A DNA stretch of 23,002 nt from a virus (IMGVR_UViG_2740892209_000015), one strand, 5' to 3'. Counted from the first letter of the stretch, positions 2,525 to 18,102 are shown. Notes: generated from the sequence alone by a model not told the origin. Made by a program: numbers and translations.

Positions 2525-3564
2525 AGGCTGAAGCATGGCGGGTCAGCAAACTTGGTGAAATACCTGATATAACGTTCGAGGAAGCGTGTGTCAGGTGGCT
2601 TGAAGAGAAAGCACATAAAAAATCACTGGACGATGACAAAAGCCGGATCGGATTCTGGCTTCAACATTTCGCAGGAATGCAACTAAGAGACATTACTGAA
2701 TCAAAAATTTATTCAGCAATGCAGAAAATGACGAACCGGCGTCATGAGGAAAACTGGAAACTCAGGGCAGAAGCATGCAGAAAAAAAGGGAAACCTGTTC
2801 CAGAATACACGCCAAAACCGGCGTCCGTTGCAACGAAGGCTACGCATCTTTCATTTATAAAGGCCCTACTAAGAGCCGCAGAGCGTGAATGGAAAATGCT
2901 GGATAAGGCACCAATTATTAAAGTGCCTCAACCAAAGAATAAACGGATCCGCTGGCTGGAGCCCCATGAAGCACAAAGGCTGATTGATGAATGTCCGGAG
3001 CCATTAAAGTCTGTTGTTGAATTTGCACTGGCAACAGGCTTAAGACGCTCGAACATCATCAACCTTGAATGGCAACAAATAGATATGCAGCGCCGGGTGG
3101 CATGGATAAACCCGGAAGAGAGTAAATCAAACCGCGCAATTGGCGTTGCGCTGAATGATACTGCATGTCGCGTATTGAAAAAACAAATCGGGAATCATCA
3201 CCGTTGGGTATTTGTGTACAAGGAAAGCTGTACCAAACCAGACGGAACGAAAGCGCCAACAGTAAGGAAGATGCGGTATGACGCAAACACAGCCTGGAAA
3301 GCGGCGCTGAGACGGGCTGGTATTGATGATTTCAGATTTCACGACTTGAGACACACCTGGGCAAGTTGGCTGGTTCAAGCCGGAGTCCCGTTGTCAGTGT
3401 TACAGGAAATGGGAGGCTGGGAGTCTATCGAAATGGTTCGTCGATATGCTCACCTTGCACCTAATCACCTTACCGAACACGCACGGCAAATAGACTCGAT
3501 CCTGAACCCATCGGTCCCAAATTTGTCCCAGTCAAAAAATAAGGAAGGTACTAATGATGTGTAA
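2401..3564 (+). CDS. int: Tyrosine integrase, P22 / DLP12 IntD-like lambdoid family (387 aa)
   Basis: N-terminus [21 protein letters not shown]... and C-terminal catalytic HxxR ([10 protein letters not shown]) and Tyr (VRRYAHL) motifs. Reads toward a thrW-like att core immediately downstream. Confidence 0.9.
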
Positions 3565-3578: not shown

Positions 3579-3597
3579 TGGTGCGATAATAGGAACA
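3579..3597. repeat. Degenerate direct repeat of the thrW 3' end (att core, junction between the two elements)
   Basis: AATGGTGCGATAATAGGA here versus AATGGTGCCGATAATAGGA at 21557-21575 (one indel). Lies 15 nt after the int stop. Confidence 0.7.
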
Positions 3598-3656
3598 ATA
3601 CACATAGGCGATAAGCTTTGTTTTTGTTGCCTTTTTTATTGTTCATTTTTTATAGA

Positions 3657-3681
3657 TACCCCCAAAAGTACCCCCATATCT
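3657..3681. repeat. TACCCCCA-type direct repeat, candidate integrase arm-type site (copy 1)
   Basis: ATACCCCCAAAAGTACCCCCAT; near-identical copy at 21425-21450 in the same orientation, each just inside one island boundary. Confidence 0.5.
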
Positions 3682-3795
3682 TTTTCCGCCCCTGAAATTT
3701 GGTTGTTATTCATACAGCATATCAGGCGGTAACGCTCTCCCTTTAACCCACTTATTGTATGATAGTGCTATCCCACAATAAGGAATCAGCCAGCC

Positions 3796-4155
3796 ATGAG
3801 AATGACCAGCCGTAAAAAAGAGATACTCAGTTATTTTGAGCCGGATAACCTAGAATGGGTGACAGGTGAGATTGGTGCGCCGCCGTTCGATGTGTCGGGC
3901 GTGGCCTACCTGCTTCATGGCATGGTGTCGTTCGATAAGCGCCACCAGCTCGAATCAACCCGGCGCACACTGGAAAGCATGGTTGCTGGTGGACTGCTTG
4001 AGCGGGTGACAGTGTATGAATCGCGTCAGGTACGGCGCGGCGGTGAGACTAACGCAACGGTCGTGCGCTACGGTTTACCCGGTCACTGCGCTGTTATGCG
4101 CGATACTGGCGGCGCTGATAACGCAATATCAGGCGAATACATGCGGGTCAGTTAA
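3796..4155 (+). CDS. Hypothetical protein (119 aa)
   Basis: ORF with AAGGAA upstream of the ATG. Convergent 8-nt overlap with the downstream minus-strand gene. No family recognised. Confidence 0.45.
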   Translation: MRMTSRKKEILSYFEPDNLEWVTGEIGAPPFDVSGVAYLLHGMVSFDKRHQLESTRRTLESMVAGGLLERVTVYESRQVRRGGETNATVVRYGLPGHCAVMRDTGGADNAISGEYMRVS

Positions 4156-4690
4156 GAGCCTGCAATCTGTCGTTAATGTTGTTCAGGTCGTAAACCCGGC
4201 GTTCAATATCCAGCATCAGGAAATCGTGGATCTCGGCCTGTTCAGGATTATCAGACTCTCTGGCCTGTAAGAGCAATTCATTGTAACCATGCAAACCACC
4301 CGAATTTTCCGCCGGGGTAGTGCCCTTCCCGCGCAAACAGCTAACAGGCTGGATACTGGTATCATGTGTTTGCTTCTCCAGCACAACAAGGCAATCCCAC
4401 CAGTCGCCAAAGTCATACGTGTAAACCAGCTTGTCACCCTCATTCTGGAGCGCCGCCCATAGTGGCGTGATTGCCGCGTTACCCATGCTTTCATCCTCAC
4501 CCCATACGCGATACTCGCTACCTGGATCACCTTTACGCCCTTTCTCGAACATATACAGGTGTTCGTCATTCCAGCCAAAAGCTAACTGGATCACGGCATG
4601 AAGTTTACTAAAGGGGATTTGCTCTGGAACCAGCACACGCCGCCATATTGGTGGTTTGCTGTCTCGGATGGTTATCTTTATCTGGTACAT
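4148..4690 (-). CDS. PRiA4b ORF-3-like family protein (180 aa)
   Basis: N-terminal signature IKITIRDSKPPIWRRVLVP...LHAVIQLAFGWNDEHLYMF matches the pRiA4b ORF-3-like domain as I recall it. Confidence 0.65.
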   Translation of the reverse strand: MYQIKITIRDSKPPIWRRVLVPEQIPFSKLHAVIQLAFGWNDEHLYMFEKGRKGDPGSEYRVWGEDESMGNAAITPLWAALQNEGDKLVYTYDFGDWWDCLVVLEKQTHDTSIQPVSCLRGKGTTPAENSGGLHGYNELLLQARESDNPEQAEIHDFLMLDIERRVYDLNNINDRLQALN

Positions 4691-4733
4691 GCGTCGTGAA
4701 CCAATAGTGTACGTTTAGGTGGGTATTTTTCTG

Positions 4734-5168
4734 CTACTGACCAGGATAGAGCTGATGTGCCGGGTCAAGCCAGACAATATGGAATACATTACCGATGAAA
4801 AATCCATGTATGCGACCATATTCATTGCGCGATATGGCAAATTGATAAGGTGTATAACTCTGAAACTGTTCATTCAAATGCTGAAATCCCTTAGGTTCAG
4901 ATGTAGTTTGCCAATCAATCGGATGTGACTTCAACGAACCACCGCGATCGGTGGTGAACTCTCGTTCAGTCATAGTGGAAAGGTCTTTGAGGCGGTCTAA
5001 CACCTTGCAAAAATAAACAGGATTCTGAGCGCTGAAAGTAAATTTCTCATGCGCCGCATCGATATACCGAAAAGAAAAGTTGATGGTCGTTATGCCTGAA
5101 CCTGTTCCCCCAGGCACTATTTTTGTTTGCGAGGGTGCAATCTTCGACGCCCTGATTCTTTTCGCCAT
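4734..5168 (-). CDS. Hypothetical protein (144 aa), candidate toxin partner of the upstream Panacea-domain protein
   Basis: Start codon 2 nt after the stop of the upstream gene (tight coupling). No family recognised. Confidence 0.55.
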   Translation of the reverse strand: MAKRIRASKIAPSQTKIVPGGTGSGITTINFSFRYIDAAHEKFTFSAQNPVYFCKVLDRLKDLSTMTEREFTTDRGGSLKSHPIDWQTTSEPKGFQHLNEQFQSYTPYQFAISRNEYGRIHGFFIGNVFHIVWLDPAHQLYPGQ

Positions 5169-5170
5169 AT

Positions 5171-5626
5171 TTAGGAAGCCATCGAACGATAAAACTCAGC
5201 CGTTACACTTTTATCAATAACATTCTTGCACGGCGCATCTGATGGAACCCCTTCACGGGCCTCCAGCCACGGCTTTTCTTGGTGCGTCATCTGCTCCAGC
5301 TCATAAGCTGTATAACCGCCAAATACCTCATAGATTTCCTTTAGATGCTTTGACACATTCGCAGGTAACTCAGGGCAGGCAATCTCTTCGTCTATTGAGC
5401 GCCATTTGTAATCTGCAAATCTGGTATACAAATCTCTGGCTACAGGGCCATGTACCCATGCTTCAAACTTGTCAGCAACCAGTTCTTCGCCATCATTCAG
5501 CGCCATGAACCAAGCATCAGCATAGAACACCATTTTTTGCAGTTTCAGCGGGGTCATAACATCCCCATGCTCTTGAGCAAAGCAAAGCAGGTAATCCGCT
5601 ACGCTGTTAAGGGTTGTAACTGCCAT
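5171..5626 (-). CDS. Panacea-domain (DUF4065, SocA-like) protein, putative antitoxin (151 aa from the internal start)
   Basis: KLQKMVFYADAWFMALN...FEAWVHGPV...LYTRF matches the Panacea/DUF4065 signature. AGGAG RBS 7-8 nt before the ATG at 5626; the longer ORF starting at 5857 has no RBS. Confidence 0.65.
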   Translation of the reverse strand: MAVTTLNSVADYLLCFAQEHGDVMTPLKLQKMVFYADAWFMALNDGEELVADKFEAWVHGPVARDLYTRFADYKWRSIDEEIACPELPANVSKHLKEIYEVFGGYTAYELEQMTHQEKPWLEAREGVPSDAPCKNVIDKSVTAEFYRSMAS

Positions 5627-5947
5627 TATCCAATCTCCTGCCGTATGTTTTCGTCTATAACTGTCCACTACCGTTAATAATCGCATATAACCACGGGTAT
5701 TGCCCATCGTAAAATGCCATTTAAAGATTCTGCGTGATGGCTCACCATCCACCGCGCAAGATACCCGGTGCGTTTGGCTGATAATCCGCAATTTGGTTGA
5801 AACCGTCCTGGAAACCTCAAGTTTGGAAACCAGCGACTTGCATCGTAGCTTTGCCATTCGGCGGTCATAGTTACTGCTATATCCCTTTATTGGCGAGACC
5901 TGCGAGAGGTTTTGTTGTTCGAATATATAAAGGTGAATAAAGGTAAT

Positions 5948-6133
5948 CTACCTGCGCGGCGCAGGCTTCTTCCACTGGTAGGCGGGTGATCGCATCATTT
6001 CGCGAAATTTGTCACGCCGGGCTATATTGGCATTAACTGAGCGTTCTATCTCCCGTTGATCTGCCGGGGTTAGCTGGTGGCCTTCGTGCTCCAGTTTGGC
6101 GGTGGTCAATAAAGCTATTTCGCGTGGTGTCAT
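5948..6133 (-). CDS. Hypothetical small protein (61 aa)
   Basis: AGAGGG RBS-like sequence upstream of the ATG; basic C-terminus. No family recognised. Confidence 0.4.
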   Translation of the reverse strand: MTPREIALLTTAKLEHEGHQLTPADQREIERSVNANIARRDKFREMMRSPAYQWKKPAPRR

Positions 6134-6429
6134 ACGTCATACCCTCTGGAAGGATGAAACACGCCCGGATTAAATTTCATTTTTCGCGGGTATAAAAAAC
6201 GATGGGGCGGGCAGTCCCGGATAGTCAGGGCTGTAGAGATTTGACTACCCCCTCCCCACTGGATTCAGGTTACTGCTATTCCGTTAAGCGCTGCTTACGG
6301 GGATAGCTGCGTTGTGATTTTGACCATTCAGGTCGCCGCTATTTCCTCACCGATTGGGTGCTACGCGCGCGCGTACTTGTCCCGAAATACCAGAAACCGC
6401 CAGCCAGAGGATGATTTCCCTCTGGTGGT

Positions 6430-6711
6430 CTACCTTTGCCTCTTGCCGCCATTTAACCGGAAGGCGTTACCGTTCGGTTGCGCTATCCCCATGCGGTGTT
6501 GCGTTTCGGTAACAGCTTTATGCAGGTCGCCAAATTCCTCAACCTTCACGGGCGGGCGCTTCACGTTCTCCAGACACGTTTCACGGCGGCGCTTTATCCA
6601 TTCCCGATCATCGTCCTCGCTGCATAACAGCATGACTTCCATCCATCGTGCGGCAGCTCTCCGGTATAGCCCTTTTGACTCCAGCTCTTCAGCTTTCCTG
6701 TCCCTTATCAT
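6430..6711 (-). CDS. PerC-family transcriptional activator-like protein (93 aa)
   Basis: AEELESKGLYRRAAARWMEVM resembles the PerC family core. GAGAGG RBS and a TATAAT hexamer lie immediately upstream, abutting the left iteron cluster. Confidence 0.6.
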   Translation of the reverse strand: MIRDRKAEELESKGLYRRAAARWMEVMLLCSEDDDREWIKRRRETCLENVKRPPVKVEEFGDLHKAVTETQHRMGIAQPNGNAFRLNGGKRQR

Positions 6712-6740
6712 TTCTGCCTCTCAGATTATATAGATAAGCA

Positions 6741-6875
6741 AAAAGGTGTTGGTTCAGTTGGTTCAGTTGGTTCAATTTGTAAAGATCGTTGTTTTTATTA
6801 TGTTTTTTCTAAAATATTGAACCAACATCAACTCATTTTGAACCAACACAGCCCAGCTCTGAACCAACAACACAG
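6741..6875. repeat. Iteron cluster L (origin-like): 3 tandem GTTGGTTCA, AT-rich spacer, 3 inverted TGAACCAAC
   Basis: 6741-6785 is a perfect 45-bp inverted repeat of 12982-13026. Tandem 9-mers at 6748-6774; inverted copies at about 6818, 6839 and 6860; AT-rich core 6786-6816. Confidence 0.85.
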
Positions 6876-6970
6876 CGATAGCTTTGTGATTGGCCCGTTA
6901 TTTTCTGGCTGATATTTGATCGTATAACAGTGTTATACAGTGATATACTGTATGGATATTACTCACTGAT

Positions 6971-7426
6971 ATGGTCTTTGCAATGAGCAAATCTAATCTG
7001 GTCGCGTTCCGCATCCCATCTGAATTGCAGGATGAGTTTAATCGGTCTGTTCTCGCTTCTGGAGGGGATAAAACCTCCTGGCTTGTTGATGCGATTCGCA
7101 TGAAGCTGGGACAGCCGGAAAAGTCTATTGATTCACGAATGCTTGGGCTGGTGGAGCGCATGGAAAAAGCTGCTGCGTCGCTTATTGCCGGAAAGCCGAA
7201 CATCCCACCAAAGCCATATAACGAAACGGCAGTTATAAAGATCATTGCCGATACCATCCGACAGGGATTTGATAATGGGCGTGTGATAGCTGAACGGATC
7301 AATGAAGCAGGCTATCAAACAAAAGCTGGTAAAGCGTGGGATAAAGATATTTACAGCGCGTGGAAGCGTCAGGGAAGCAATGCTGAAAAGTTAAAAGCGG
7401 TGATTGATTGTAAGGTCAGCGTATAA
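6971..7426 (+). CDS. Ribbon-helix-helix (Arc/CopG-like) DNA-binding protein with a C-terminal recombinase-like HTH region (147-151 aa)
   Basis: N-terminal SKSNLVAFRIPSELQDEF is an RHH beta-strand/helix signature. C-terminal VIAERINEAGYQTKAGKAWDKDIYSAWKR resembles the DNA-binding motif of serine-recombinase 'recombinase' domains. Start is ambiguous (6971 or 6983). Confidence 0.6.
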   Translation: MVFAMSKSNLVAFRIPSELQDEFNRSVLASGGDKTSWLVDAIRMKLGQPEKSIDSRMLGLVERMEKAAASLIAGKPNIPPKPYNETAVIKIIADTIRQGFDNGRVIAERINEAGYQTKAGKAWDKDIYSAWKRQGSNAEKLKAVIDCKVSV

Positions 7427-7505
7427 ACATGAGTGCCCATTGGAAAGCTGCTTGGGCCAATACCTTTATACACCAGCAGGTGGTGACGATAGGTGAGGAT
7501 CAGGA

Positions 7506-7727
7506 ATGAAAGGCAGAACGCCACACATTGAACATCAAGCCAACCACTTCTCGGATGTTCGCAATGAGATGATTGCCATTCGCGGTGATATGCACGGCTT
7601 GGAGCGTCGAATTATTGATAAGATTGATGAAAATAGAGATAAGGCCAGTGAAAATCAAAAGTGGATCATCGGCCTGTTGATTTTATCAATTCTTATCCCG
7701 CTACTTATCGCATTGGTCACAAAATGA
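7506..7727 (+). CDS. Small membrane protein (73 aa), coiled-coil plus C-terminal TM helix, XhlA-like topology
   Basis: GGTGAGGA RBS. C-terminal WIIGLLILSILIPLLIALV hydrophobic helix after a charged helical region. Confidence 0.55.
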   Translation: MKGRTPHIEHQANHFSDVRNEMIAIRGDMHGLERRIIDKIDENRDKASENQKWIIGLLILSILIPLLIALVTK

Positions 7728-8251
7728 ATATCCAATGTGTATGCTGTCGATGCTACGCGCGCGTACTTGTCGCAAAATATCAGGCAAAGGCCAGATTCAG
7801 AATGTCGTGATAACCACCAGCACAACATGAGATGTCATGTAACGCGATTTATCACGTCAGATACATGTGATTGGTGTACCCGCATAAAACATTGTCATAG
7901 CGCGTCCTGTGCGCATATACGCCGATAATCAACACATCACCACCACTCTGTCTCATGTAGAGAACAGTTTTATGGTATCCCCCCGCCATCGTGTGCATAC
8001 TGGTCGGACGTAGTTGCAAAATTTTTTGCAACTGATACCCCTCGCACGCGTACTTGTCTCGAAATTGGTGTTTTGCTGTGGCAGTGATATCAGAAAAATC
8101 TTCCTGTTTCACATAAAGCGGATATGTGCGCACTGTAACGGCCCCATCAACGGGGATCGGATTTGAAATCCCGACCCAAGCTATGTACCAAATGCCATGT
8201 CTTGGATATATGATGATTGCCATTCTAAACAACGCTAAAGGGAGGGTTGGT

Positions 8252-8650
8252 GTGAATCAATTGAAGCGATTGGTTGTCTCCGGTTTATTATTTGCTTCTT
8301 TTGGAGCGAACGCTGAATGCTGGATTATTGGTGATCTGAAAGGACAAGAAGCCTCAAGTTCAGATGGGTATAACTATAAGTTATCATCTATACCAGATAC
8401 CTTTCATTTGGTAATAAGTAAAGAGAAGGCGGATCTTATCTTGGCAAAAGATGGTATAGGTGGAGGTATTGATTATTACCCGCTATCTCCGAATGCCATG
8501 ATGGGAAGAAGCTATCGAGATGGTCAACTGACGCTTGTCACATGGGCAATCTCAAATGACGGAAAAGTGATCCATACACGAACAATTAGTCGATCTGATA
8601 TAGGCTCATTTACAGGCTCATTTGTCGGCAATGTTAAAGGCAAGTGTTAA
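8252..8650 (+). CDS. Secreted/periplasmic protein with N-terminal signal peptide (132 aa, GTG start)
   Basis: AGGGAGGG RBS 5 nt before GTG at 8252. N-terminus KRLVVSGLLFASFGANA followed by a polar mature region. AT-rich. Convergent with the 701-aa gene. Confidence 0.55.
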   Translation: MNQLKRLVVSGLLFASFGANAECWIIGDLKGQEASSSDGYNYKLSSIPDTFHLVISKEKADLILAKDGIGGGIDYYPLSPNAMMGRSYRDGQLTLVTWAISNDGKVIHTRTISRSDIGSFTGSFVGNVKGKC

Positions 8651-8711
8651 TGTTCATAACTATTTGAAAAAATACTAATTACTATTATAACCAACCATCC
8701 ATGGCCATCTG

Positions 8712-10817
8712 TTATTGAGCTTCCTTTTGCGATGCTTGTGCTGCTGTGGTCAGTGATTGTGTGACCGTACTGATCGCTCTGTCATATGCTGTGCTACCTT
8801 TTGGCGTATTTGCCAGACGTAACAAGGCATTTCGTATAACAGGGCTTTCGTATGCCTTCGCTGCTCCGCCTACGACACCAGCAGCAGGAACAACAAACGC
8901 AGCCGTTTTTAGCATCCCCGCTAATACTGCTGCGTTTATGATGCCACCACCAACTAACAATCCATAAAGCTGCTGACCATTTAAGTTTTGAACGTTCGCT
9001 TTTGCCGCGTGTCTTGTATCGTTGAGGTATTTAATAACGCCGTCCAGTTCCTTTCCATGTATGCCTTTAAAGAAAGTTGCTGATTGCTTCCTGTTCCGGT
9101 GTAACGCATTAATAAACTTCTCAACACTGATATTTCCAGACGGATCAGTCGCCTTATCTACAGCATTCTGAACTATGGCTGCTCGTGCGTTTTGCCTACC
9201 ATTGTCATCCAGAAGCCTGTAAAGCTGAGAACGTTCTGATGGGCTTTGGCTAAAAACAAGTTTTGTTACATCCTCAGGCGTGGCCTTGCCGCTGGCTATT
9301 GCCTTTTGAACGCGCGTTCTTCCCATCATGTCATTGAATTTAGACCATGAGCGATCAACCCTTGCCATATTAATAGCTTCGTCTGCTCCAAGATTTTTGG
9401 CTACGGCTTTTTTCATATCCGCCGTATATGCCTTGTAGATAATATCGCTGGCTTTCTGGAGCGTATCTTTATCAACAGTGTCAGATGACGCCATAAATCG
9501 CTTTCGAAGATCGGTTCTGTTTTCCCTCGCCAGACGCAGGTCATTTGGTCCGCTGGTGATATCGTCTTTAAATTGCTGCAAGACTTTTACCGCGGCTCTA
9601 TCCTGAGATTTGCCCGGGCGGCTTAACACGGCAATCTGATTGTCGATAGCTTTTACCGTGTTTGAGAGATCGACAGGGGTATCCCCCATAGCGTCAATTA
9701 TGCGGTTATATCGCTTTCCTGCTGCCTCAATGAATTTTTGTTGCCCTTTAGTCGCAGATTCATAAAGCTGTTTATCAGAAATGCCACCCAGACCATCGCT
9801 AAATGTTCTGACTAAATTTTCTCGTGCTTGTTGTTGATTCAGCCGATTCTTACCGGTTCCAAAAAAAGGAACTCTTTCGCCTAATGTCTGAGCCTGACTC
9901 TGCATAAAGGTTTTATCTTTCAGCATGTCACTGGTCATTAACGGCAGATTTCTTTCCGATGCAAAGTCGACAGCAGCCTTTGCTTCAGGCGACATATCAC
10001 CACGAACAGCCCTCGAAACCGCACTCGCTGTATTTTCCAGCCCCTTACCAATACCACCAATGCCAGCAGAAATTACCGTTTGTAACGGATCAATATCTTC
10101 TCCACCAGCGAGGCTGGTGGCTCCCTGTAGTGCTAAATCTGTAGCTGCTGATTTCCCTATGGCCCCCAGCACCGTTCCGGCCCTGCCCGCTGGTGTAAAC
10201 GCCAGCGCATTAGCCAGAAACGATGCCACGTCTTGCGGCGATAAACCCGGCTTGTTCAGAGCATAATCACCGGATGGCAGGGAAACGATAGTGTTACCCT
10301 TCTCATCCTGCCTTAATTTCGCTCCCATGCTCTGAAGAATCTTTTCCTGAGATGCGTCAGAGCCGAAAAGTTGAGACCATCGAGCTTTTAGAGCATCCAT
10401 GCTGAGTGAGGTTAACTCTGGGGCAAGGTCGACATTTTGCAGTCTCTCCATCTCTGGAGTCATTCGGCTTTCGCCTGTTATAGCATCGCGCATCGCAGCC
10501 CCAAGACTGGCTCCCTGTTCTGCTGAACGCTCAAGCCCCTCTCTTTGCTGAGTAGCTAACTTTGCATACCCTGACGCAATAGAATTATCAGATGATGTAT
10601 GTTGAATATTTTGAGTTGCTGATTGGGATCGGTCTATTTCATTCGTTGATGGTAGTGGATAGGCAGCATAAAAAGCCTGCTTAGCCTGCTCTACACTTTC
10701 TCCGGCTTGCGGGGCAACGACTTCATTGAAGTATTGCTCCTGAGCCTGCGCTTTTTGTTCTGGTGCTAACGCCTGATACTGTGGAGAGGCGATAACATCT
10801 TTCCATGCTTTAGCCAT
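8712..10817 (-). CDS. Large uncharacterised protein (701 aa); A/Q/K-rich, predicted helical, C-terminal hydrophobic hairpin
   Basis: Long ORF with GGGGTGA RBS, start overlapping the upstream stop (TAATG). Two adjacent hydrophobic stretches near the C-terminus (LYGLLVGGGIINAAVLAGML / AAFVVPAAGVVGGAA). No domain recognised. Confidence 0.8.
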   Translation of the reverse strand: MAKAWKDVIASPQYQALAPEQKAQAQEQYFNEVVAPQAGESVEQAKQAFYAAYPLPSTNEIDRSQSATQNIQHTSSDNSIASGYAKLATQQREGLERSAEQGASLGAAMRDAITGESRMTPEMERLQNVDLAPELTSLSMDALKARWSQLFGSDASQEKILQSMGAKLRQDEKGNTIVSLPSGDYALNKPGLSPQDVASFLANALAFTPAGRAGTVLGAIGKSAATDLALQGATSLAGGEDIDPLQTVISAGIGGIGKGLENTASAVSRAVRGDMSPEAKAAVDFASERNLPLMTSDMLKDKTFMQSQAQTLGERVPFFGTGKNRLNQQQARENLVRTFSDGLGGISDKQLYESATKGQQKFIEAAGKRYNRIIDAMGDTPVDLSNTVKAIDNQIAVLSRPGKSQDRAAVKVLQQFKDDITSGPNDLRLARENRTDLRKRFMASSDTVDKDTLQKASDIIYKAYTADMKKAVAKNLGADEAINMARVDRSWSKFNDMMGRTRVQKAIASGKATPEDVTKLVFSQSPSERSQLYRLLDDNGRQNARAAIVQNAVDKATDPSGNISVEKFINALHRNRKQSATFFKGIHGKELDGVIKYLNDTRHAAKANVQNLNGQQLYGLLVGGGIINAAVLAGMLKTAAFVVPAAGVVGGAAKAYESPVIRNALLRLANTPKGSTAYDRAISTVTQSLTTAAQASQKEAQ

Positions 10818-12283
10818 TAATCACCCCATAGTGAAGAAAAGTTACTGCTGGCTGCTGGCTGTGATACCTGCTCAGATTGCGGCAATGTCTGCGACGAAGA
10901 AGAAGTTCCTCTGTCAACTGCTGAAATAACCCGCAAAGCATCATAAGTTCGACCAGAAGCAGCTTTCAGCGAATTGAACTGGTTTTCCATCTTCCGGCGC
11001 TTGGTATCAATGGTTTTTGTGGAGTCGCCAGGCTGAGGGAAATACATTTGATAATATTTTGACATTTCAGCAGGTGCGATAGCTGCCCCTGTTTCCTGAC
11101 GGAGTATTGCCATTATTGCGTCATTAGCATTAACAACGTATTGCTGCTCTGCTGGGCTGAGCGTTAAGTTAGCCAGCGTCCCATTACCCAAAGCATTATT
11201 AATGATCGCCACTCGCTGTGGGCTAAGCTGGTCTTTCAGTGTATCTATTGAATCAAGAGCATCCCTAACCCTGTATGCAAATCCAGCAGCTTTTTTAGCC
11301 CCTTCTGGCGACTTTTCCATGATCTTTTGGGCTGTTGGCAAAGCTATTGGACGAAACCCATCTCCAGATATTGGCTGGTTTAGTTTTCCCTGCTCTTCAC
11401 TTCCGTCTGTGTAGTATTTTGTGACAGTGCCATCATCGTTTTCTCTAACACTCATTAATTTTTTGGTGTTTGTATTAATTCCAGCCGCTGCCGCAAATGC
11501 CGCCGCCCCCTCTGGATCAGCCTTTAACATTTGCGCGTACTGATTGTAATTCTGCATTGCTGCTGTTGGTGCATATGCTGACGTTAACGCATTTGCTCGG
11601 CTAATATCCTGCCCTCTCGCCTGAAGTGCTTCACCAGCTTTATTGCTGCGAATCGTCTCTGCCAACTCGCCACGCTCAATATCCCGACCCTCCATTCGAT
11701 CTTTGATATCGAAGTACTTCTCATGACCGAGAGAAAACAGCGCCAGATTACCTGCGAAATGCTGGAAGCCCTGCGGGTCATTAACCTGCATTTCAGCAAT
11801 AGTTTCTGGAGGGATACCTAAACGACGCATCTCCTGCTCATTATCCATCATGAACCTGCCAAATGCGCCCGGACCAAGCGATGAGGCTACCTGTGCTTTA
11901 AGCGCCAGATTGCCATAATCATCCCTTTGAGCATCATCGACATAACTCATCCCTTTACGGACTTCCTCAAACTCTTCGGGGAATGCTGTAATAAGATTAC
12001 GCATCTGCTCCCTGTCGCCGGACGCATAAGCATCTGCATAACCTTTCTGGAATGCCGCTTTACGCTCCTGCTGTTGCTGCTGCTTATAAATGTCAGCAAC
12101 TCCAGCCAGACCACGAAGGCCTGTCAGAGCAACGTTATTTGCACCTGATCGAGCCAGTTCATTGTTTTCGCGGATCAGACCAAGCGTTGCGTTAATGTCG
12201 CTTGCCTTTGGCGCATTCTCGTTTTGCGCACCAATGCCAGCCAGAAAACCACCAGAATTAATACCCTGTTGCCACGTAGCCAT
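10817..12283 (-). CDS. Large uncharacterised protein (~488 aa); poly-Q stretch, A/G/Q-rich
   Basis: Long ORF. ATG at 12283 is 4 nt after the stop of the 57-aa ORF; the track's GTG at 12295 is the alternative start. No domain recognised. Confidence 0.75.
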   Translation of the reverse strand: MATWQQGINSGGFLAGIGAQNENAPKASDINATLGLIRENNELARSGANNVALTGLRGLAGVADIYKQQQQQERKAAFQKGYADAYASGDREQMRNLITAFPEEFEEVRKGMSYVDDAQRDDYGNLALKAQVASSLGPGAFGRFMMDNEQEMRRLGIPPETIAEMQVNDPQGFQHFAGNLALFSLGHEKYFDIKDRMEGRDIERGELAETIRSNKAGEALQARGQDISRANALTSAYAPTAAMQNYNQYAQMLKADPEGAAAFAAAAGINTNTKKLMSVRENDDGTVTKYYTDGSEEQGKLNQPISGDGFRPIALPTAQKIMEKSPEGAKKAAGFAYRVRDALDSIDTLKDQLSPQRVAIINNALGNGTLANLTLSPAEQQYVVNANDAIMAILRQETGAAIAPAEMSKYYQMYFPQPGDSTKTIDTKRRKMENQFNSLKAASGRTYDALRVISAVDRGTSSSSQTLPQSEQVSQPAASSNFSSLWGD

Positions 12284-12287
12284 AAAT

Positions 12288-12461
12288 TTACCCACGTCCA
12301 GTTAAAGTGTAAGCCAGCGCCTTATCCATTAATCCCCGAGCAATTTCGTGGATCGTTGGCGCAACTCCTACCTCTGATTTTTTACGCTGCTCCTCCTGAA
12401 TTTTCTTTATCGCTTCCATTTGCTTCTCACTTATCAATACCGGCTTTACTGAAATAGCCAT
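12288..12461 (-). CDS. Small protein (57 aa), possible RHH-like DNA-binding protein; first gene of the operon
   Basis: Below the ORF-track size cutoff; found manually. AAGGGGG RBS 5 nt upstream of the ATG. Sequence MAISVKPVLISEKQMEAIKKIQEEQRKKSEVGVAPTIHEIARGLMDKALAYTLTGRG. Confidence 0.5.
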   Translation of the reverse strand: MAISVKPVLISEKQMEAIKKIQEEQRKKSEVGVAPTIHEIARGLMDKALAYTLTGRG

Positions 12462-12475
12462 AACGCCCCCTTAGA

Positions 12476-12495
12476 ACTGTATAAAACAACAGTTA
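12476..12495. promoter_or_regulatory. LexA-box-like palindrome (CTGT-N8-ACAG) overlapping a TATAAT -10 element upstream of the 57/488/701 operon
   Basis: AACTGTATAAAACAACAGTT on the plus strand. The minus-strand TATAAT (plus 12495-12500) lies directly adjacent, about 35 nt upstream of the ATG. Confidence 0.45.
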
Positions 12496-12554
12496 TTATA
12501 GTTTCACAAATCGCAATATTCATCATCGTAATTGCAAAATATGAAACAAACAGC

Positions 12555-12590
12555 ACAAAAAAATGCCACCGCTCAGTAGCTGGTGGCATC
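12555..12590 (-). terminator. Rho-independent terminator (minus strand) between the iteron cluster and the cargo operon
   Basis: Plus strand shows an A7 run followed by hairpin TGCCACC-N11-GGTGGCA. On the minus strand this is a GC-rich hairpin followed by a U-run. Confidence 0.55.
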
Positions 12591-12904
12591 GTTCTGTGTG
12601 TCAGGTTTTGACAGGTTTTTTATGGACTCTAAAAACTATATTTATGGTGTCGCATTACTCTTCACGGCAGGCGCTTTTCAGTTCTGCCCTTGCTTCTGGC
12701 TCCATTGGTAATTTGATTCGCGATCAGCTATGCGGATGGTTTGCTGAACAGGCATAACAACTTCTCAGGGGCTGTTTTCTGAACTACGAAAATTTCGTAT
12801 TGCTCACTTTCAAAACGTCACGCCCTTGTACACAGGATTTTACGAAAGTCTCGTAAAACACTCTCTGATGCCAGCCAGGTGTTGTGCGCATCAATTCAGT
12901 CACA

Positions 12905-13026
12905 TTGTGTTGGTTCAAAATACCGTGTTGTTGGTTCAGTGTTGGTTCAATAAAAAGAATAAAATCCTTATAAAACAATACTCTTTACAAATTGAACCAA
13001 CTGAACCAACTGAACCAACACCTTTT
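12905..13026. repeat. Iteron cluster R (origin-like), inverted copy of cluster L; 22 nt downstream of the primase stop
   Basis: 12982-13026 is a perfect 45-bp inverted repeat of 6741-6785. Additional GTTGGTTCA copies at about 12908, 12930 and 12941; AT-rich core between. Confidence 0.85.
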
Positions 13027-13044
13027 CTACGCACATGAATAAGC

Positions 13045-15801
13045 TCATTCTTCAGATGAGTTGTAATCTCCTGGCTGGTAATTGAGTACATAAACGTTTA
13101 TTTGTCGTCCCTGAATACGTGGTGATTTTCTTTGGTATCCACGACCGCTGTTTGGTGGGGTTAGCATCCCGGCTTTTTTCAACACTTCAGCAAACTGTTT
13201 TGCGTTGAAACCACATGCGATCTCCTTTTCAAATGTGGCCGGGAATGTGTAGAAAATCATTGGACTTTCGTCATGTTCTCCACGCTGACGGTATCCGGCT
13301 AAATCTTTGATGGGCAAATCTGCCGGGCTGTATGGAAATGGTGCAAAACGGCTAAGCCCATAGGCATTAAGAAATGCCTCCGTTTGTTCAATAATCTGCT
13401 GATGCTCTTTGTTACCTGTGCCGAACTCGCGCAACCATGCGTTATAGCTGTGCTGTATCGCATCACGGCATGTCTGAGCATCCCAGCCTGTTACAACCTC
13501 GCCTAACAACAATGCGGCCTCCAGAATGGCAAATCGCGCGGCTACACGGTGAACCTGCTCACCATAATCGGATGGGATCAGGCTTCTCCATCTGCTTTCG
13601 CAATCACGAACAGTTTTAATAGCCTGTTGCTGGTGGTCTGCCAGCCATTTAATCCACTCACGCCCGGCTGCGCCATGGTGATGCTGGTAAGCGTCTTTCA
13701 GTGCGTCTGCGTGCTGTTTTCCGTTCTGGTAATCGTGAAAGCGTACTGCTTTACTCAACGGAATATTCAGCAGTCGCACCAGTTGCCCGGCTTTGGTTTT
13801 TCGCCCGGAAGTAGCGATAAATGTTTCTAAATCCATTTCTCCGGTGCTGATTGCCACTGTACGCCAGCGTTTTAGATCCCGGTTTCCACCATCTTTAGCG
13901 CCTTGCAGTTTCCCTACACCGTTAAATAACGCATAGGCAGACTGTGAAACGCTGACAGGATCAGCGCCCTGACCAACTTCATCAAGCGGCATTAATCCGT
14001 CATTGTGGGCGGCGGCCTCATTTGCCAGCCCCAGCGCGGTTCCGTACCACGTCAGCCGCAGTAAATCAGGGTTGCCGTATAAGCTGCTCGCCACGTTTGC
14101 CGTGGTGGTCTTACCCGCGCTCGACTGCTCATAGAAATGAATGCCGAACCCGTCAGCGCCCACCAGCCCAATCAATGGCGCTGCCAGTGCTGCGCCGATC
14201 CCGGTCATCATTGAATAGTTACCAAAGGCCAGACGCGCCACGTTATCACGCCAGCTTTTCGCGCTCCCTGAGACGGTATATCCGGCTGCGGCTGAGCTTC
14301 TCCCGCTGAACAGCACAGGATTTTCAGGTGTTCCGATGATTTCCCCATCAGGCATGATGTACGCTCCGCATTGCCAGCCAGTGGCATGAGCAACACGCCA
14401 CAATTCACGAGAGCCACTGCGTTGTAGCCAGTCTGCCAGTATTGCTCTGAGGCTGCTTTTGGTCGTGACATTTACCCCACCAGCTTTAAGTGTGCGCCAT
14501 CCTTCACGTTCACCAATATCAGCCAGTGGAATGGCAGCGGTTGTCGGCGTTTCAGAACCAAACGACAGCCAGCGAAGAATGAGATACTGGTCTTTATCGT
14601 CTCTGCCAGTACCGATAACGCTTAACGGAGAACATAACCAGCTTTCGTTATTGATGATTTCTCCACTCTGGCTGTCAGCTCTCGGAGATACCCAATAAAT
14701 ACCATCCTCGCGGCTTTCTATTCTTGGTTTCAGTGGGTCGGTATCCATAACCTTAAAATCGCTTCCCTCAATGGTCTGTGGCTCCTGTTTCACGCCATTA
14801 CCCTGTGGTTGGTACATTGACTTATTGAACGCTTCTGTGGCGCATTTAATGCCGTGTTTTTGGTGGTAATCATTCCAGTCTGCTTTGTGATCTGTCGGGG
14901 GTAATGCCACCCATCCAGAAACAGATAAAGCTGCTTTTTCTGCTGCTATTCTCCCCGTGTTTTGTCTTCCTTCGCTGTGGTCGTTATCCGCAGCAATGAT
15001 GATTTGTGCTGAAGGAAATTTATCCCGCAGTACCTGGGCGACATATAACAGGTTCCCGGCATCAATCGCCGCCACTGTCAGCGCCTCTGGACGAATTAAA
15101 TGGACAGATAATGCCGTTGCCAGCCCTTCTGCGATTAAGATGCTCTGTGTTGTTTCTGGTGCGTTTATGGCGTGATATGCCCCTCGCTTTGCTGAACCTG
15201 TCAGGAGTCTTTTTTCACCATGTGAGGTAATAGTCTGTGCTGCTGTGACTGCGCCGGATTTATCCACCAGCGCCAGCAACAGAGATCCATCGGGCAACAC
15301 GGGGAATGTAAAATCACCTACCCCTTTCGCAACCAGATAATCAGATTTGCCGTTTACAGCCTTTCTGCGCATGTCATCAAACTGACGGGAAAACGTATCC
15401 CGTCTTTGTTGTTCGTCCTTCTCTGCCCTTTTCAGGCGCTCCTGTTCGCGTCGCTGGCGCTCGGTTTCCAGTTGTTCCCGTTTCTGGCTGGTGGCTTCTG
15501 GTGTTTCCGTTGTCCGGTAATCAATACCCAGAACATCAGCGGCAAGAAGCGCCGCCTCTGTTGTGTCGCAGTTATTTACGCGTTTAATTAAATCCAGCCC
15601 ATCACCAGCGCCGCACTGATTACAGATGAAGCTACCGCGCCCGTTGTCATCGAACCGGAATCGATCTTTGCCCCCACATGCAGGGCAGGGAGCATGACGG
15701 CGCGGAGAGTCAGGGACATTTATGTTCAGGCAGCCCAGCACATGAGGCCAGTTGTTTTCAGACGCACTGATAACCTGACGGATAAGATCAATGTTTCGCA
15801 T
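13045..15801 (-). CDS. Replicative primase / replication initiation protein (918 aa): N-terminal zinc ribbon, TOPRIM-like domain, C-terminal NTPase-like region; P4 alpha / PICI Pri-Rep analogue
   Basis: CPACGG...CNQCG zinc ribbon. TOPRIM-like acidic motifs (LIAEGLATA; IIAADNDHSEG). ACGGGGG RBS. Iteron cluster lies immediately 3' of the gene. Confidence 0.8.
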   Translation of the reverse strand: MRNIDLIRQVISASENNWPHVLGCLNINVPDSPRRHAPCPACGGKDRFRFDDNGRGSFICNQCGAGDGLDLIKRVNNCDTTEAALLAADVLGIDYRTTETPEATSQKREQLETERQRREQERLKRAEKDEQQRRDTFSRQFDDMRRKAVNGKSDYLVAKGVGDFTFPVLPDGSLLLALVDKSGAVTAAQTITSHGEKRLLTGSAKRGAYHAINAPETTQSILIAEGLATALSVHLIRPEALTVAAIDAGNLLYVAQVLRDKFPSAQIIIAADNDHSEGRQNTGRIAAEKAALSVSGWVALPPTDHKADWNDYHQKHGIKCATEAFNKSMYQPQGNGVKQEPQTIEGSDFKVMDTDPLKPRIESREDGIYWVSPRADSQSGEIINNESWLCSPLSVIGTGRDDKDQYLILRWLSFGSETPTTAAIPLADIGEREGWRTLKAGGVNVTTKSSLRAILADWLQRSGSRELWRVAHATGWQCGAYIMPDGEIIGTPENPVLFSGRSSAAAGYTVSGSAKSWRDNVARLAFGNYSMMTGIGAALAAPLIGLVGADGFGIHFYEQSSAGKTTTANVASSLYGNPDLLRLTWYGTALGLANEAAAHNDGLMPLDEVGQGADPVSVSQSAYALFNGVGKLQGAKDGGNRDLKRWRTVAISTGEMDLETFIATSGRKTKAGQLVRLLNIPLSKAVRFHDYQNGKQHADALKDAYQHHHGAAGREWIKWLADHQQQAIKTVRDCESRWRSLIPSDYGEQVHRVAARFAILEAALLLGEVVTGWDAQTCRDAIQHSYNAWLREFGTGNKEHQQIIEQTEAFLNAYGLSRFAPFPYSPADLPIKDLAGYRQRGEHDESPMIFYTFPATFEKEIACGFNAKQFAEVLKKAGMLTPPNSGRGYQRKSPRIQGRQINVYVLNYQPGDYNSSEE

Positions 15802-15813
15802 TCTGGCCCCCGT

Positions 15814-16416
15814 TTAGTGCGTCACTGGTGCTTCTGGGATGCCGTTTTCGTTTAGTTCGGCAATAAAGCTGTTGTGAAGATCGGCAAGCACTTCTCGCCC
15901 AAACGAAGTGAGTGTTCCCTGTTCAACATCGAACATGTTGCTGTAAAAAATGATGGCATTCTTTGTTCCGACATCAACACCATATTTCTCGATCATTGCG
16001 CCCTCAATGTTGTTTGCCATAGCGAGGCGCTCTGCTACTGGATACAGCGGCATGGCGACGATGCCATTGGAATAAACAGAAACCACGGAATGATTGCCAC
16101 TGTCATCAATAATGCTGACGGTGCCGTTTTCCTTTCTCATTTCATTGATGAATGCTGTTGCTATCAGCCAGCGCCACATAATCACGTGATGCTGTGATGT
16201 GTAATCGAAATATCCCTGGTTGCCGCCACTGGCAATAGCGAGATGTATAAACATGCCTTCATCTGGTTTATCGTCATAATCCCCGGCATCCAGACGATTT
16301 ACGGCATCAATATATGAGACGGTCTCAACGCGTTCTGTCATGCCATCGTTGCTGCGGTACATGATGTTTACGCCGTCAGGCGTTGCTTCTGCATGGAAAG
16401 TTAAGAAATTATTCAT
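15814..16416 (-). CDS. Hypothetical protein (200 aa from the internal ATG)
   Basis: ATG at 16416 overlaps the upstream stop by 8 nt; RBS-like GAGG upstream. The track's longer N-terminal extension lacks an RBS. Confidence 0.55.
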   Translation of the reverse strand: MNNFLTFHAEATPDGVNIMYRSNDGMTERVETVSYIDAVNRLDAGDYDDKPDEGMFIHLAIASGGNQGYFDYTSQHHVIMWRWLIATAFINEMRKENGTVSIIDDSGNHSVVSVYSNGIVAMPLYPVAERLAMANNIEGAMIEKYGVDVGTKNAIIFYSNMFDVEQGTLTSFGREVLADLHNSFIAELNENGIPEAPVTH

Positions 16417-16630
16417 GTTTCGCCTCGCCTGAATGATTCTGTAACTCATATTTGCCCAACAATTCGTCCGCTTCCTGAATAGCTTCTGGTACGCCATTGA
16501 GCAGTGACATAACCGCGCCAATCATTAACTTGTCTCTGTTGCTGGGGCTGGCCCCTTCAAGCCAGAACCCTAAAACAGTCTGAACCTGTTCGATGCGACA
16601 TTGCGCTTCAATGAGCTGGATGTTGGTCAT
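16409..16630 (-). CDS. Hypothetical small protein (73 aa)
   Basis: GGAGAG RBS; ATGA start/stop overlap with the upstream gene. Confidence 0.55.
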   Translation of the reverse strand: MTNIQLIEAQCRIEQVQTVLGFWLEGASPSNRDKLMIGAVMSLLNGVPEAIQEADELLGKYELQNHSGEAKHE

Positions 16631-16890
16631 TTCGCACTCTCCACATCGATTAAACCGAGATCTATCAGGGAGGTAACTTTTTGTAGCCAGCTATTGATTA
16701 CTGTCGCCTGTTCCCCTCCCACCGAGGGAACAATCTCATTCATCACATGAACCAGACCTGTGCGCGCTCTGGTAAGCCGTTCAGTCGCGCAATCTGCGGG
16801 AGTGAATGTGTCTGGATATGGCTCTTCACGGCTCAGCAATGATTCAATTTCCAGCTCACACGGATGACGATAAATTAAGTTGATATTCAT
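16627..16890 (-). CDS. Hypothetical small protein (87 aa)
   Basis: GGGGGTGA RBS; ATGA overlap with the upstream gene. Confidence 0.55.
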   Translation of the reverse strand: MNINLIYRHPCELEIESLLSREEPYPDTFTPADCATERLTRARTGLVHVMNEIVPSVGGEQATVINSWLQKVTSLIDLGLIDVESAK

Positions 16891-17081
16891 TTTTCACCCC
16901 CAAGAATTACCAGCTCGGCACGGGCATCGTTAACCAAAGATGAGCACGCTTTAATCGCATCCACGACATCAGCAGCGTCCATTTCTTCAGCCGAAAGACT
17001 GACAGCAACCAGGACAGCCGCTGCTTGCTCGATTAATTGAAGTGCGGACGTAAGGCGAGGGGTATTAATTGAGTTATTCAT
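16887..17081 (-). CDS. Hypothetical small protein (64 aa from the internal ATG)
   Basis: ATG at 17081 with ACGGGGG RBS, overlapping the upstream stop by 8 nt. Confidence 0.5.
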   Translation of the reverse strand: MNNSINTPRLTSALQLIEQAAAVLVAVSLSAEEMDAADVVDAIKACSSLVNDARAELVILGGEK

Positions 17082-17292
17082 TGGTTGCCCCCGTTTTGCA
17101 TGGCATTTGTCCACCTTCCAGCAGGAAATGAACGTCACGAACGGCGAGATCCAATATCGCGAGTAACGCCTTCAGTCTTTCGTCTCGTGAGGGAGAGTTG
17201 CTCACCAGAATGTCGTTAATCACTTCTGTCAGTGTGATGATCTGGCTTGTGCGTTCGAGGGGATCCATATGCACATCGTAGGTTTTAATCAT
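17074..17292 (-). CDS. Hypothetical small protein (72 aa)
   Basis: ATG at 17292 preceded by GGAGGTGG, overlapping the stop of the 64-aa ORF (ATGATTAA). In frame with the long 342-aa track ORF but most likely an independent gene. Confidence 0.5.
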   Translation of the reverse strand: MIKTYDVHMDPLERTSQIITLTEVINDILVSNSPSRDERLKALLAILDLAVRDVHFLLEGGQMPCKTGATNE

Positions 17293-17479
17293 GTGCCACC
17301 TCCATGCGGATACGACCAGCAAAAAAGCAGACGTGATCGCGCACCAGAGAACGGCGAGCATCGCGTTCAGACTCGGCAGCAATATGATGAATTTTGGCGG
17401 TAATTGTCGGGCAATCGCGGCGAACTGCGGCGATAATCCAGATAAATTGCGGTTTTGGGGTAGGGGTAGTAGCCAGCAT
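17285..17479 (-). CDS. Hypothetical small protein (64 aa)
   Basis: Strong AAGGAGG RBS 7 nt upstream of the ATG at 17479. Different frame from the long track ORF that covers it. Confidence 0.5.
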   Translation of the reverse strand: MLATTPTPKPQFIWIIAAVRRDCPTITAKIHHIAAESERDARRSLVRDHVCFFAGRIRMEVAHD

Positions 17480-17641
17480 GTGGCAGCCTCCTTGATTGAT
17501 GGTTTATAGCCACCGCCCAAGAGACCAATCTTGCTGGCGGTGGACTGTACGGAGTTGGCCTTACTGGCAATCAAGGAAACCAGCCTACCCGAAGGTAGCC
17601 CCATACAGCCCACCATTGATAAGGTGTGCGTGTGCGCCGAT

Positions 17642-17664
17642 ACAAAAAAAGACGCTGGCGCGTC
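17642..17664 (-). terminator. Candidate intrinsic terminator (minus strand) inside the long track ORF
   Basis: On the minus strand: hairpin GACGC-GCCA-GCGTC followed by a U7 run. Confidence 0.45.
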
Positions 17665-18102
17665 ATGTATCGCCTCGATTGTCAGCGGGAGGCCAATCCC
17701 GGCACCCGTTTTATGAGGTGCCTTATAACCATAAACCGTGTTGCCGCATAACGGCAAGCTCTTTTTTATGGACTCCGAAAACTCAGTATTGGAAGCACCA
17801 GATGCACAGTACATCGCGCTCATTTCGTTAACGTCACGCACGTGGACGAATGTTTTTGTGGAGTCACTACACGAGCGGAAGACATCATCTACGACCAGAA
17901 ATTTTCTGGCGCAGCCGCTGACCTTCTCAATGCTAATATCATCGCCCGAGATTTCTGGTATGGTTAAGGCATCCGTTCCGACCACCAGCAAATGATAAAC
18001 TTTGCTTGCATCTGCTGTATTAATGCCTGACTTTGCCGTCATATTGCTGGATTTTGGCGACATACCTGCCAGTGAAAATGTCTTCTTCTGGACGGTTAGC
18101 AT
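17642..18102 (-). CDS. Hypothetical protein, N-terminal ~150 codons of the long track ORF; 3' end unresolved
   Basis: ATG at 18102 with GGAGG RBS, 3 nt after the stop of the upstream gene. The first ~150 aa look protein-like, then composition degenerates. No in-frame stop before 17074. Confidence 0.35.
17741..17767 (+). terminator. Candidate intrinsic terminator (plus strand), implying a short antisense transcript
   Basis: Hairpin TTGCCG-CATAA-CGGCAA followed by GCTC and a T6 run on the plus strand. Confidence 0.4.

Follow-up and report, generated by a model that had tools for sequence, protein, structure and literature searches.

The window analysed here, a stretch of viral DNA of 23,002 nucleotides (nt; IMGVR_UViG_2740892209_000015), contains a phage satellite of the phage-inducible chromosomal island (PICI) type resembling the island EcCIMP1 of Escherichia coli. 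On the minus strand, behind the primase gene of the satellite, there are three closely coupled, uninterrupted open reading frames (ORFs) encoding proteins of 57, 488 and 701 amino acids (aa). The 57-aa gene (12288-12461, minus strand) is located at the head of the operon, with the ribosome-binding site AAGGGGG upstream. It is followed by a homologue of gp20 of phage P22 (488 aa; 10817-12283, minus strand) and by a homologue of P22 gp16 (701 aa; 8712-10817, minus strand).

Operon structure and homology of the encoded proteins

The stop codon of the 57-aa gene and the ATG of the gp20 gene are separated by 4 nt. The gp20 stop and the gp16 start share 1 nt (TAATG, at 10817), exactly as P22 genes 20 and 16 do, and the gp20 gene lies directly upstream of the gp16 gene and is translationally coupled to it in the P22 arrangement. 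The second ORF had been listed as 492 aa starting from GTG; the ATG at 12283, which is supported by homology, gives 488 aa, and the resulting N-terminus MATWQQGINSGG equals the start of gp20 in P22 and in the P22-like podophage vB_EcoP_Kapi1 (Kapi1). Alanine makes up 14% of the two large proteins, glutamine 7%, glycine 8% and lysine 5-7%. Because the 57aa-gp20-gp16 block recurs in hundreds of E. coli genomes, this arrangement of ORFs is not a product of chance.

An initial annotation, made from the sequence alone, had described three coupled genes of these sizes as one operon within a phage satellite, and the intact ORFs, the 4-nt gap and the 1-nt overlap agree with it. Both large proteins were considered uncharacterised in that annotation. 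They are found to match phage structural families with high confidence (PF16928 and phrog_917 for gp20, PF26808 and phrog_770 for gp16). Confident homology to phage ejection proteins, which the annotation had itself named as the result that would speak against its view, was obtained for both, and of the roles it had listed, 'DNA-delivery/ejection-type proteins' is the one that corresponds to P22 gp20 and gp16. The RefSeq names of the large proteins are already 'phage DNA ejection protein' or 'injection protein'. Neither NCBIfam nor PADLOC gave any match for the three operon proteins or the neighbouring cargo ORFs, and Pfam and PHROG scans revealed no terminase-like or scaffold-like domain in the operon proteins.

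The 488-aa protein matched the Pfam family PF16928 (Inj_translocase) over residues 16-232 (E 1.6e-84; 283 bits, cut-off 29.7) and phrog_917 over the full length (2.8e-144). PF16928 is the 'injectosome' family that includes P22 gp20. The protein shares 56% identity with P22 gp20 within residues 1-239; past that point the two are unrelated. It shows 54% identity to Kapi1 gp20 over residues 1-212 and 51% identity to gp20 (P33) of APSE over residues 54-459. Judging by these alignments, it is a mosaic member of the gp20 family, with the N-terminal ~240 aa being P22/Kapi1-like and the C-terminal half APSE-like. At the DNA level, the resemblance to P22 and Kapi1 sets in about 9 nt ahead of the gp20 ATG, and the 5' end of the gp20 gene is 86-91% identical to theirs.

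Residues 19-700 of the 701-aa protein were aligned with positions 3-667 of the 668 in the phrog_770 profile, 'DNA transfer protein' (2.1e-161). The assignment to PF26808 (Phage_P22_gp16) was taken from the precomputed annotation of an identical protein. Identity to P22 gp16 itself is 30% over 482 aa (E 1e-52), with the region of a hydrophobic hairpin lying inside the alignment. Closer relatives are gp16 of Escherichia phage N7 (67% identical) and a 71%-identical Salmonella homologue from complete P22-like prophages, where the gene order is portal-scaffold-coat-4-10-26-14-7-20-16. By its similarity to these homologues, the window gp16 represents an allele type used by real phages such as N7 and the P22-like prophages of Salmonella.

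The 701-aa protein has a single strongly hydrophobic region, residues 616-653 (Kyte-Doolittle >1.4), which is divided into two stretches by K637. This region aligns to residues ~530-560 of P22 gp16, the aligned glycine being conserved. The changes G532W and P546S, which allow escape from SieA, map to the same region of P22 gp16 (PMC10883804). The hairpin is matched by alignment to the known membrane region of gp16, and its insertion into the membrane is predicted. The initial annotation had placed a membrane-insertion hairpin at the end of the protein. The two hydrophobic stretches do exist, but they are found about 48 residues before the C-terminus and not at the very end.

In two of the related loci, the Prokaryotic Genome Annotation Pipeline (PGAP) tags the gp16 homologue as a pseudogene ('incomplete; missing C-terminus'): L001, 12001-14106, and L004, 6813-8918 (RefSeq NZ_AP038814, NZ_CP049196). 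The flagged frames are full length and 97.6-99.95% identical to the window gene. Since they carry zero stop codons, the flags look like an annotation artefact of the family model.

The operon is expressed supposedly from a platform located at 12462-12585 (minus strand). It comprises the intrinsic terminator that ends the primase transcript (12580-12565, minus strand), a conserved promoter with a TATAAT box, two 15-bp sites TTTCA-N5-TGCAA (12532-12546 and 12502-12516) and the ribosome-binding site. Apart from the two promoter copies, the TTTCA-N5-TGCAA motif is not enriched within the window. The platform is identical in the island of strain E118. The conserved terminator, the two sites, the TATAAT box and the ribosome-binding site also precede the small gene in related islands, and their order can be aligned across 21 loci from many genera.

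The best guess for the 57-aa protein is a conserved protein of the satellite backbone acting as a dedicated regulator. A regulatory role is favoured over a structural one because the protein is tied to the cassette downstream whatever the cassette type. Its predicted fold, an extended N-terminus and two helices, is compatible with a ribbon-helix-helix protein; homology tests for the Arc, MetJ and CopG type lent no support to this identity. The possibility that its C-terminus is a fused remnant of gp7 was considered and rejected: homology to the E118 backbone stops at codon ~50, the P22/Kapi1 homology begins only ~9 nt before the gp20 ATG, and 19 unique nt lie between the two.

The island and its relatives

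The whole satellite, an EcCIMP1-like PICI of ~17.98 kb, occupies positions 3585-21575 and has a 10-bp attachment (att) core at both ends, the right copy being inside thrW. The core GATAATAGGA occurs exactly twice, at 3585-3594 and 21566-21575 (0.03 expected by chance), and equals the published EcCIMP1 att core TCCTATTATC. The thrW gene for tRNA-Thr(CGT) is located at 21559-21634, next to a proA-like gene (21749-23002). Between the att copies there are genes for an integrase, AlpA, a 143-aa protein, AntA, DUF4222 and Ash, several small ORFs, and a primase/replicase of 918 aa (13045-15801, minus strand) with Zn-ribbon, Toprim and DUF927 domains found by Pfam. The primase gene is immediately upstream of the operon. 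Past it there are the operon, a convergent ORF and then a region encoding PerC, a Panacea-domain protein and a PRiA4_ORF3 protein. The island is assigned to the EcCIMP1-like PICIs by the integrase-AlpA-(AntA, Ash)-DUF927 primase backbone, by a size in the range of ~15-20 kb with no other virion or lysis genes, and by integration at tRNA-Thr next to proA with TCCTATTATC repeats.

The initial annotation had regarded the element as a P4-like satellite. Pfam and PHROG scans of the island ORFs found no families of sid, psu or delta, the P4 genes for capsid size and helper control, and the element is therefore not P4-like; it resembles instead PICI EcCIMP1, with which it shares the att core and the AlpA/AntA/Ash/DUF927-primase backbone. 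P4-like satellites share with this island the integrative life style, a Zn-ribbon/Toprim primase, an AlpA-type regulator, an Ash-family protein and a variable accessory region. They differ from it in using a P2-like helper rather than one of the P22-like type, and in possessing sid, psu and delta. The operon of the window is also a conserved core and not the cargo of a hotspot.

EcCIMP1 of E. coli MP1 has been reported to excise, circularise and be transduced only upon induction of Kapi1 (Pick, Stadel and Raivio, ISME J 2025; PMC11773190). EcCIMP1 adds to superinfection immunity, and the Kapi1 titre released on induction is unchanged by it (PMC11773190). A published transcriptome study of strain MP1 was consulted and yielded no values for individual genes of the EcCIMP1 module. 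The window island has in common with EcCIMP1 the thrW site by proA, the att core, the integrase-AlpA-AntA-DUF4222-Ash-primase backbone, a primase gene 99.4% identical in DNA, a small gene 87% identical, a PerC gene and a P22-type ejection module downstream of the primase. The modules themselves are different. That of EcCIMP1 consists of gp14 (DUF2824)-gp7-gp20-gp16, with a gp16 of 906 aa containing a transglycosylase domain, whereas the window carries gp20-gp16 only; the cargo differs as well. The gp20 proteins of the two islands are 27% identical, and this in the N-terminal ~200 aa only, and the gp16 pair shows no BLASTP similarity. Identity between EcCIMP1 and its helper Kapi1 is 83% for gp14, 57% for gp7, 26% for gp20 and 24% for gp16. 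For gp20 and gp16 of EcCIMP1, the satellite copy has diverged from the helper's own component.

The ejection (E) proteins gp20 and gp16 of P22 (Lederbergvirus; gp12 and gp13 of Sf6) resemble the products of the window operon in their families (PF16928, PF26808, phrog_917 and phrog_770), gene order, 1-nt overlap, hydrophobic region near the C-terminus of gp16, mosaic variability and the presence of a small convergent ORF after gene 16. Unlike those of P22, the genes of the window are situated in an 18-kb satellite without genes for capsid, portal, terminase, tail, gp14 or gp7, and they follow a satellite-specific 57-aa gene with its promoter instead of belonging to a phage late operon.

Islands of this type were the only places where a protein identical to the 701-aa one was found, each time in the order primase, 57 aa, gp20 (488 aa), gp16 (701 aa) and convergent 145-aa ORF. 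Islands with the identical block differ in the integrase, the chromosomal site (thrW/proA or yicC-dinD) and the distal cargo. Because of this, the operon belongs to the conserved core of the island and not, as the initial annotation assumed, to its variable cargo slot. The gp20-57aa-primase junction is present in ~253 of 5426 complete E. coli genomes.

The islands of E118 and locus L005 contain gp14-gp7-gp20-gp16. Their gp16 genes are 97-98% identical to that of the window in DNA, and their gp20 genes are 90% identical from nucleotide 181 on. The E118 backbone does not differ from that of the window as far as codon ~50 of the small gene, past which the two diverge. The ratio of nonsynonymous to synonymous divergence (dN/dS) among the island copies is 0.12-0.15 for gp16 and 0.07-0.23 for gp20, which indicates purifying selection on both genes. 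Synonymous divergence (dS) of gp20 and gp16 is 0.05-0.28, as compared with 0.013-0.022 in the adjacent primase gene. This excess (4-20 times) argues for cassette exchange, that is, for a recombinational history separate from that of the primase.

Using the primase as the query, 77 loci were retrieved from species-representative genomes, and 66 of them belong to Enterobacterales (L005-L070). The small gene is present in 31 of these 66 loci, where it is followed by cassettes of different kinds. In Escherichia and Leclercia, the cassette encodes P22 ejection proteins. In Enterobacter, Klebsiella, Pantoea, Erwinia, Pluralibacter and others, it encodes a ~108-aa protein and a tape-measure protein of 860-1245 aa (phrog_1538, 1107, 2854; Pfam TMP families). 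In some cassettes, the tape-measure-like proteins contain lytic domains, SLT among them (phrog_2013, 2276, 7694). Two Klebsiella species and one Leclercia have genes for internal virion proteins of the T7 type (PF24072 T7_gp14, a phrog_1044 protein with an SLT domain, phrog_3003 and phrog_684). Common to all these cassettes is that they encode virion components which leave the particle before the DNA and make up its path through the envelope. A gene for a delivery protein was found in 25 of the 31 loci with the small gene and in 2 of the 35 without it (Fisher's exact test, 2e-10, only indicative as the loci are related).

A Pfam scan of 129 ORFs from eight islands showed integrase, primase, Ash, AntA, tape-measure, SLT and SSB families together with flanking housekeeping genes. 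Capsid, portal and terminase families were not among the 25 families listed for these ORFs, and none recurred in at least two loci; isolated single matches are possible. In the Rosenbergiella island (L020, 15377-16417), the small gene is followed by a gene for a 346-aa protein which by eye resembles a baseplate-hub or tail protein rather than a tape measure, and which recalls the baseplate hub encoded by satellites of Vibrio discussed below.

Possible role in genome delivery and alternative explanations

The operon can be interpreted as the genome-delivery module of an EcCIMP1-like PICI which parasitises P22-like podophages and supplies alternative delivery proteins to the virions built by the helper. 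We put the probability of this interpretation at about 0.55. It builds on the homology and intactness of the genes, the purifying selection, the conserved position and promoter, the divergence from the alleles of the known helper and the cassette pattern across the family. It would also imply that the operon is expressed on induction, that its products are incorporated into the virion and used in delivery, and that the satellite gains a selective benefit from them.

The proposed course of events is as follows. During lytic growth of the helper phage, the island would be derepressed, excised and replicated, and the 57aa-gp20-gp16 operon would be transcribed from the island's own regulated promoter. 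The gp20 and gp16 proteins of the island could then be loaded into procapsids built by the helper, replacing its ejection proteins or joining them, with gp14, gp7 and everything else coming from the helper. Upon infection of a new cell, the satellite gp20 would form the periplasmic tube, and gp16 would enter the inner membrane via its hydrophobic hairpin. The satellite might in this way itself encode the variable parts of the conduit taken by its DNA, those which bear the specificity. The likely benefit is entry independent of the helper alleles, for example, escape from SieA-type exclusion or from interference aimed at the delivery proteins of the helper. The targets of SieA-type exclusion are gp16 and gp20, and it is the lysogens which the satellite has to reach that express it.

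In P22, ejection proteins can be replaced by ones as divergent as those of EcCIMP1 and Kapi1, both in assembly and in injection (Leavitt et al., PMC10883804). Of the three ejection proteins, gp7 is the most conserved, and SieA escape maps to gp16 and gp20 (PMC10883804). The minimal cassette of the window retains exactly gp20 and gp16, the two SieA-escape genes.

Several observations weigh against a function in delivery. The cassette of the window lacks gp14 and gp7. SieA of types A and B excluded phages that differ greatly in their ejection proteins, and allele replacement may therefore not suffice for escape (PMC10883804). Kapi1 transduces EcCIMP1 at low frequency, and Pick et al. left EcCIMP1_017-019 as hypothetical genes, maybe involved in packaging (PMC11773190). 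About half of the primase-related islands are without the whole module, which is not essential for the satellite life style. The end of the adjacent prophage in the window is SfIV-like and not demonstrably P22-like, and hence gives no pointer to the helper.

A precedent is known in the PLE satellites of Vibrio cholerae. Each of them has genes for an alternative tape measure and tail assembly chaperone, and some have one for a baseplate hub; the products are 20-41% identical to those of the helper ICP1 (Seed-laboratory preprint, PMC11838301). PLE virions selectively take up the PLE versions of tape measure, chaperone and hub, which efficient transduction requires; the authors state that what the satellite gains is not understood, and that tmp genes exist in other satellites too (PMC11838301). 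A December 2025 preprint calls tape-measure genes otherwise absent from satellites. PLE and the satellite type of the window have in common an ejected delivery component that is encoded by the satellite and strongly diverged from that of the helper (20-41% identity in PLE, 24-26% between EcCIMP1 and Kapi1). Relatives of the window island also hold tape-measure proteins with a ~108-aa partner in the same slot. The two systems differ in that PLE have a myovirus helper, tail components and demonstrated virion incorporation, whereas the type seen in the window would involve a podovirus helper and capsid-internal ejection proteins. Literature searches for ejection, tape-measure or internal virion proteins encoded by satellites yielded Pick et al. 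2025 and the PLE and EPIP preprints only, and no paper was found that describes satellite-encoded podophage ejection proteins as such.

Satellites commonly disturb the virion assembly of their helpers, and the island gp20 and gp16 might be poison subunits that enter the helper's virions by co-assembly and make its progeny less infective. Otherwise these two proteins, or the 145-aa periplasmic protein encoded convergently, might be expressed in the resident cell and block the DNA entry of incoming P22-like phages. Such interference or defence seems unlikely. The island alleles are indeed far from those of the helper, as a dominant-negative subunit would be, and the block is accompanied by the ORF at the sieA position (8126-8650). 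Against this, the Kapi1 titre on induction does not change in the presence of EcCIMP1 (PMC11773190), and the proteins are full-length and under purifying selection along the whole length, like working virion proteins. Elsewhere, the same slot is occupied by complete tape-measure proteins with partner genes or by four-gene sets of internal virion proteins, which is more typical of a replacement kit than of decoys. PADLOC gave no matches, and the convergent ORF is without similarity to SieA. On the last two counts, no support was obtained either for the suggestion of the initial annotation that the operon is a toxin/immunity or defence system. The least probable alternative, which may nearly be disregarded, is a toxin acting on membranes whose immunity gene is the convergent one, or else a new anti-phage system forming part of the accessory cargo: gp16 does have a membrane-insertion hairpin and a convergent gene does adjoin it, but the hairpin is a conserved gp16 feature that aligns to P22 gp16, both proteins belong to virion families, and the block is core and not cargo.

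A role in packaging or capsid morphogenesis, redirecting helper packaging or head assembly to the satellite genome as Pick et al. considered for EcCIMP1_017-019, is improbable, even though the operon is located downstream of the primase, where characterised Gram-negative PICIs hold genes for packaging redirection, and some databases tag gp14 and gp16 homologues as 'head morphogenesis'. P22 particles without 7, 16 or 20 can be purified on CsCl gradients and yet form no plaques (PMC10883804), so the defect lies in delivery and not in particle assembly. The window cassette is also without gp14, the sole non-virion assembly factor of the set, and contains no terminase-like or scaffold-like domain. 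No more credit can be given to the assumption that the operon is an inert remnant, left behind when the island recombined with a P22-like prophage. Phage-derived segments, including the P22/Kapi1-like 5' end of gp20, make the cassette a mosaic, gp14 and gp7 are missing, and some genomes carry PGAP pseudogene flags on gp16. However, these flags are artefacts, the ORFs are intact in every copy examined, and dN/dS is 0.07-0.23. The block is kept in hundreds of genomes and at several insertion sites, and in many genera delivery cassettes of various kinds have been acquired again and again downstream of this conserved promoter and small gene.

The interpretation as a delivery module can be widened, more tentatively and with a chance somewhat below even, to a PICI lineage of Enterobacterales with a plug-in delivery cassette matched to the morphotype of the helper. 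Its virions would be chimeric, with a DNA-entry conduit encoded by the satellite, and the window would represent the podophage version. Both gp20 and gp16 might be kept as the targets of SieA-type exclusion, allowing the satellite to enter helper lysogens that exclude the helper itself.

To our knowledge, satellites have been thought to steal complete virions, altering only capsid size and packaging. In 2025, Vibrio PLE were shown to place a tape measure of their own in the tails of the helper. The locus suggests that a PLE-like strategy may exist for short-tailed phages by means of capsid-internal ejection proteins, and that one widespread enterobacterial PICI lineage may swap delivery cassettes to suit its helper. 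The protein families were known and the PICI type was described in 2025; what appears to be new is that the module is recognised as a set of ejection proteins carried by a satellite, together with the wider pattern of delivery cassettes matched to the helper. P22-like phages with their excellent genetics, K+ efflux assays and SieA mutants make the system tractable. It can be used to ask why the parasite of a virus requires DNA-entry machinery of its own, and how ejection proteins of foreign origin find their way into procapsids. The genes also matter for annotation: because of them, satellites are classed as 'incomplete prophages', and intact gp16 genes receive pseudogene flags from PGAP.

Neighbouring features of the window

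The convergent ORF (8126-8650, plus strand), called as 145 aa by gene callers, matches phrog_2651 of unknown function (2.9e-22). It has a signal-peptide-like N-terminus (…LLFASFGANA/ECW) and occupies the sieA position, the P22 layout being 20-16-<sieA. The ORF was found beside gp16 in all six places carrying the identical gp16. It shows no similarity to P22 SieA (BLASTP E 1.9), to Kapi1_059 or to the 103-aa ORF after gp16 in the Salmonella prophages. Its identification as SieA was rejected, as only position and orientation agree. It is a candidate source of the superinfection-immunity effect reported for EcCIMP1.

Iterons with a 9-nt unit (GTTGGTTCA/TGAACCAAC x3; GTTGGTTCA and its complement) are arrayed at two places about 6 kb apart. 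The tandem repeats at 12929-13019 lie just downstream of the primase gene, and from this position they are probably the replication origin of the satellite. The other array is located at 6748-6774. The two arrays bracket the delivery module, as the initial annotation had noted in placing the operon between two iteron clusters.

The variable cargo region is found at ~3.6-8.1 kb of the window. Within 3796-6133, it encodes a PRiA4_ORF3-family protein (4148-4690), an unannotated 144-aa ORF (4734-5168) and a SocA/Panacea-domain protein (5171-5857). The 144-aa ORF and the SocA/Panacea protein, arranged in an operon-like way with an overlap of a few bases, may be a toxin-antitoxin pair. The stretch from the PerC gene to the convergent ORF contains three dispersed copies of a 28-nt repeat CGCGCGCGTACTTGTCCCGAAATACCAG (79-100% identical), at 6366-6393, 7756-7783 and 8043-8070.

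Positions 1-3564 of the window belong to a second mobile element, which stands in tandem at the duplicated thrW att site and is represented by the early-left, xis and int end of a prophage. It shares 98.6% identity with SfIV, SfII and SfV, serotype-converting phages of Shigella, and has genes for a 387-aa integrase and YfdQ/YfdR-like genes. This element was considered as a P22-like helper and rejected: its int/xis end is of the SfIV/SfII/SfV type, its integrase is unrelated to that of Kapi1, and it is uninformative on the helper. Just inside each end of the island, at 3656-3677 and 21425-21446, there is a 22-nt direct repeat ATACCCCCAAAAGTACCCCCAT (95% identical), the copies of which may be arm-type binding sites of the integrase.

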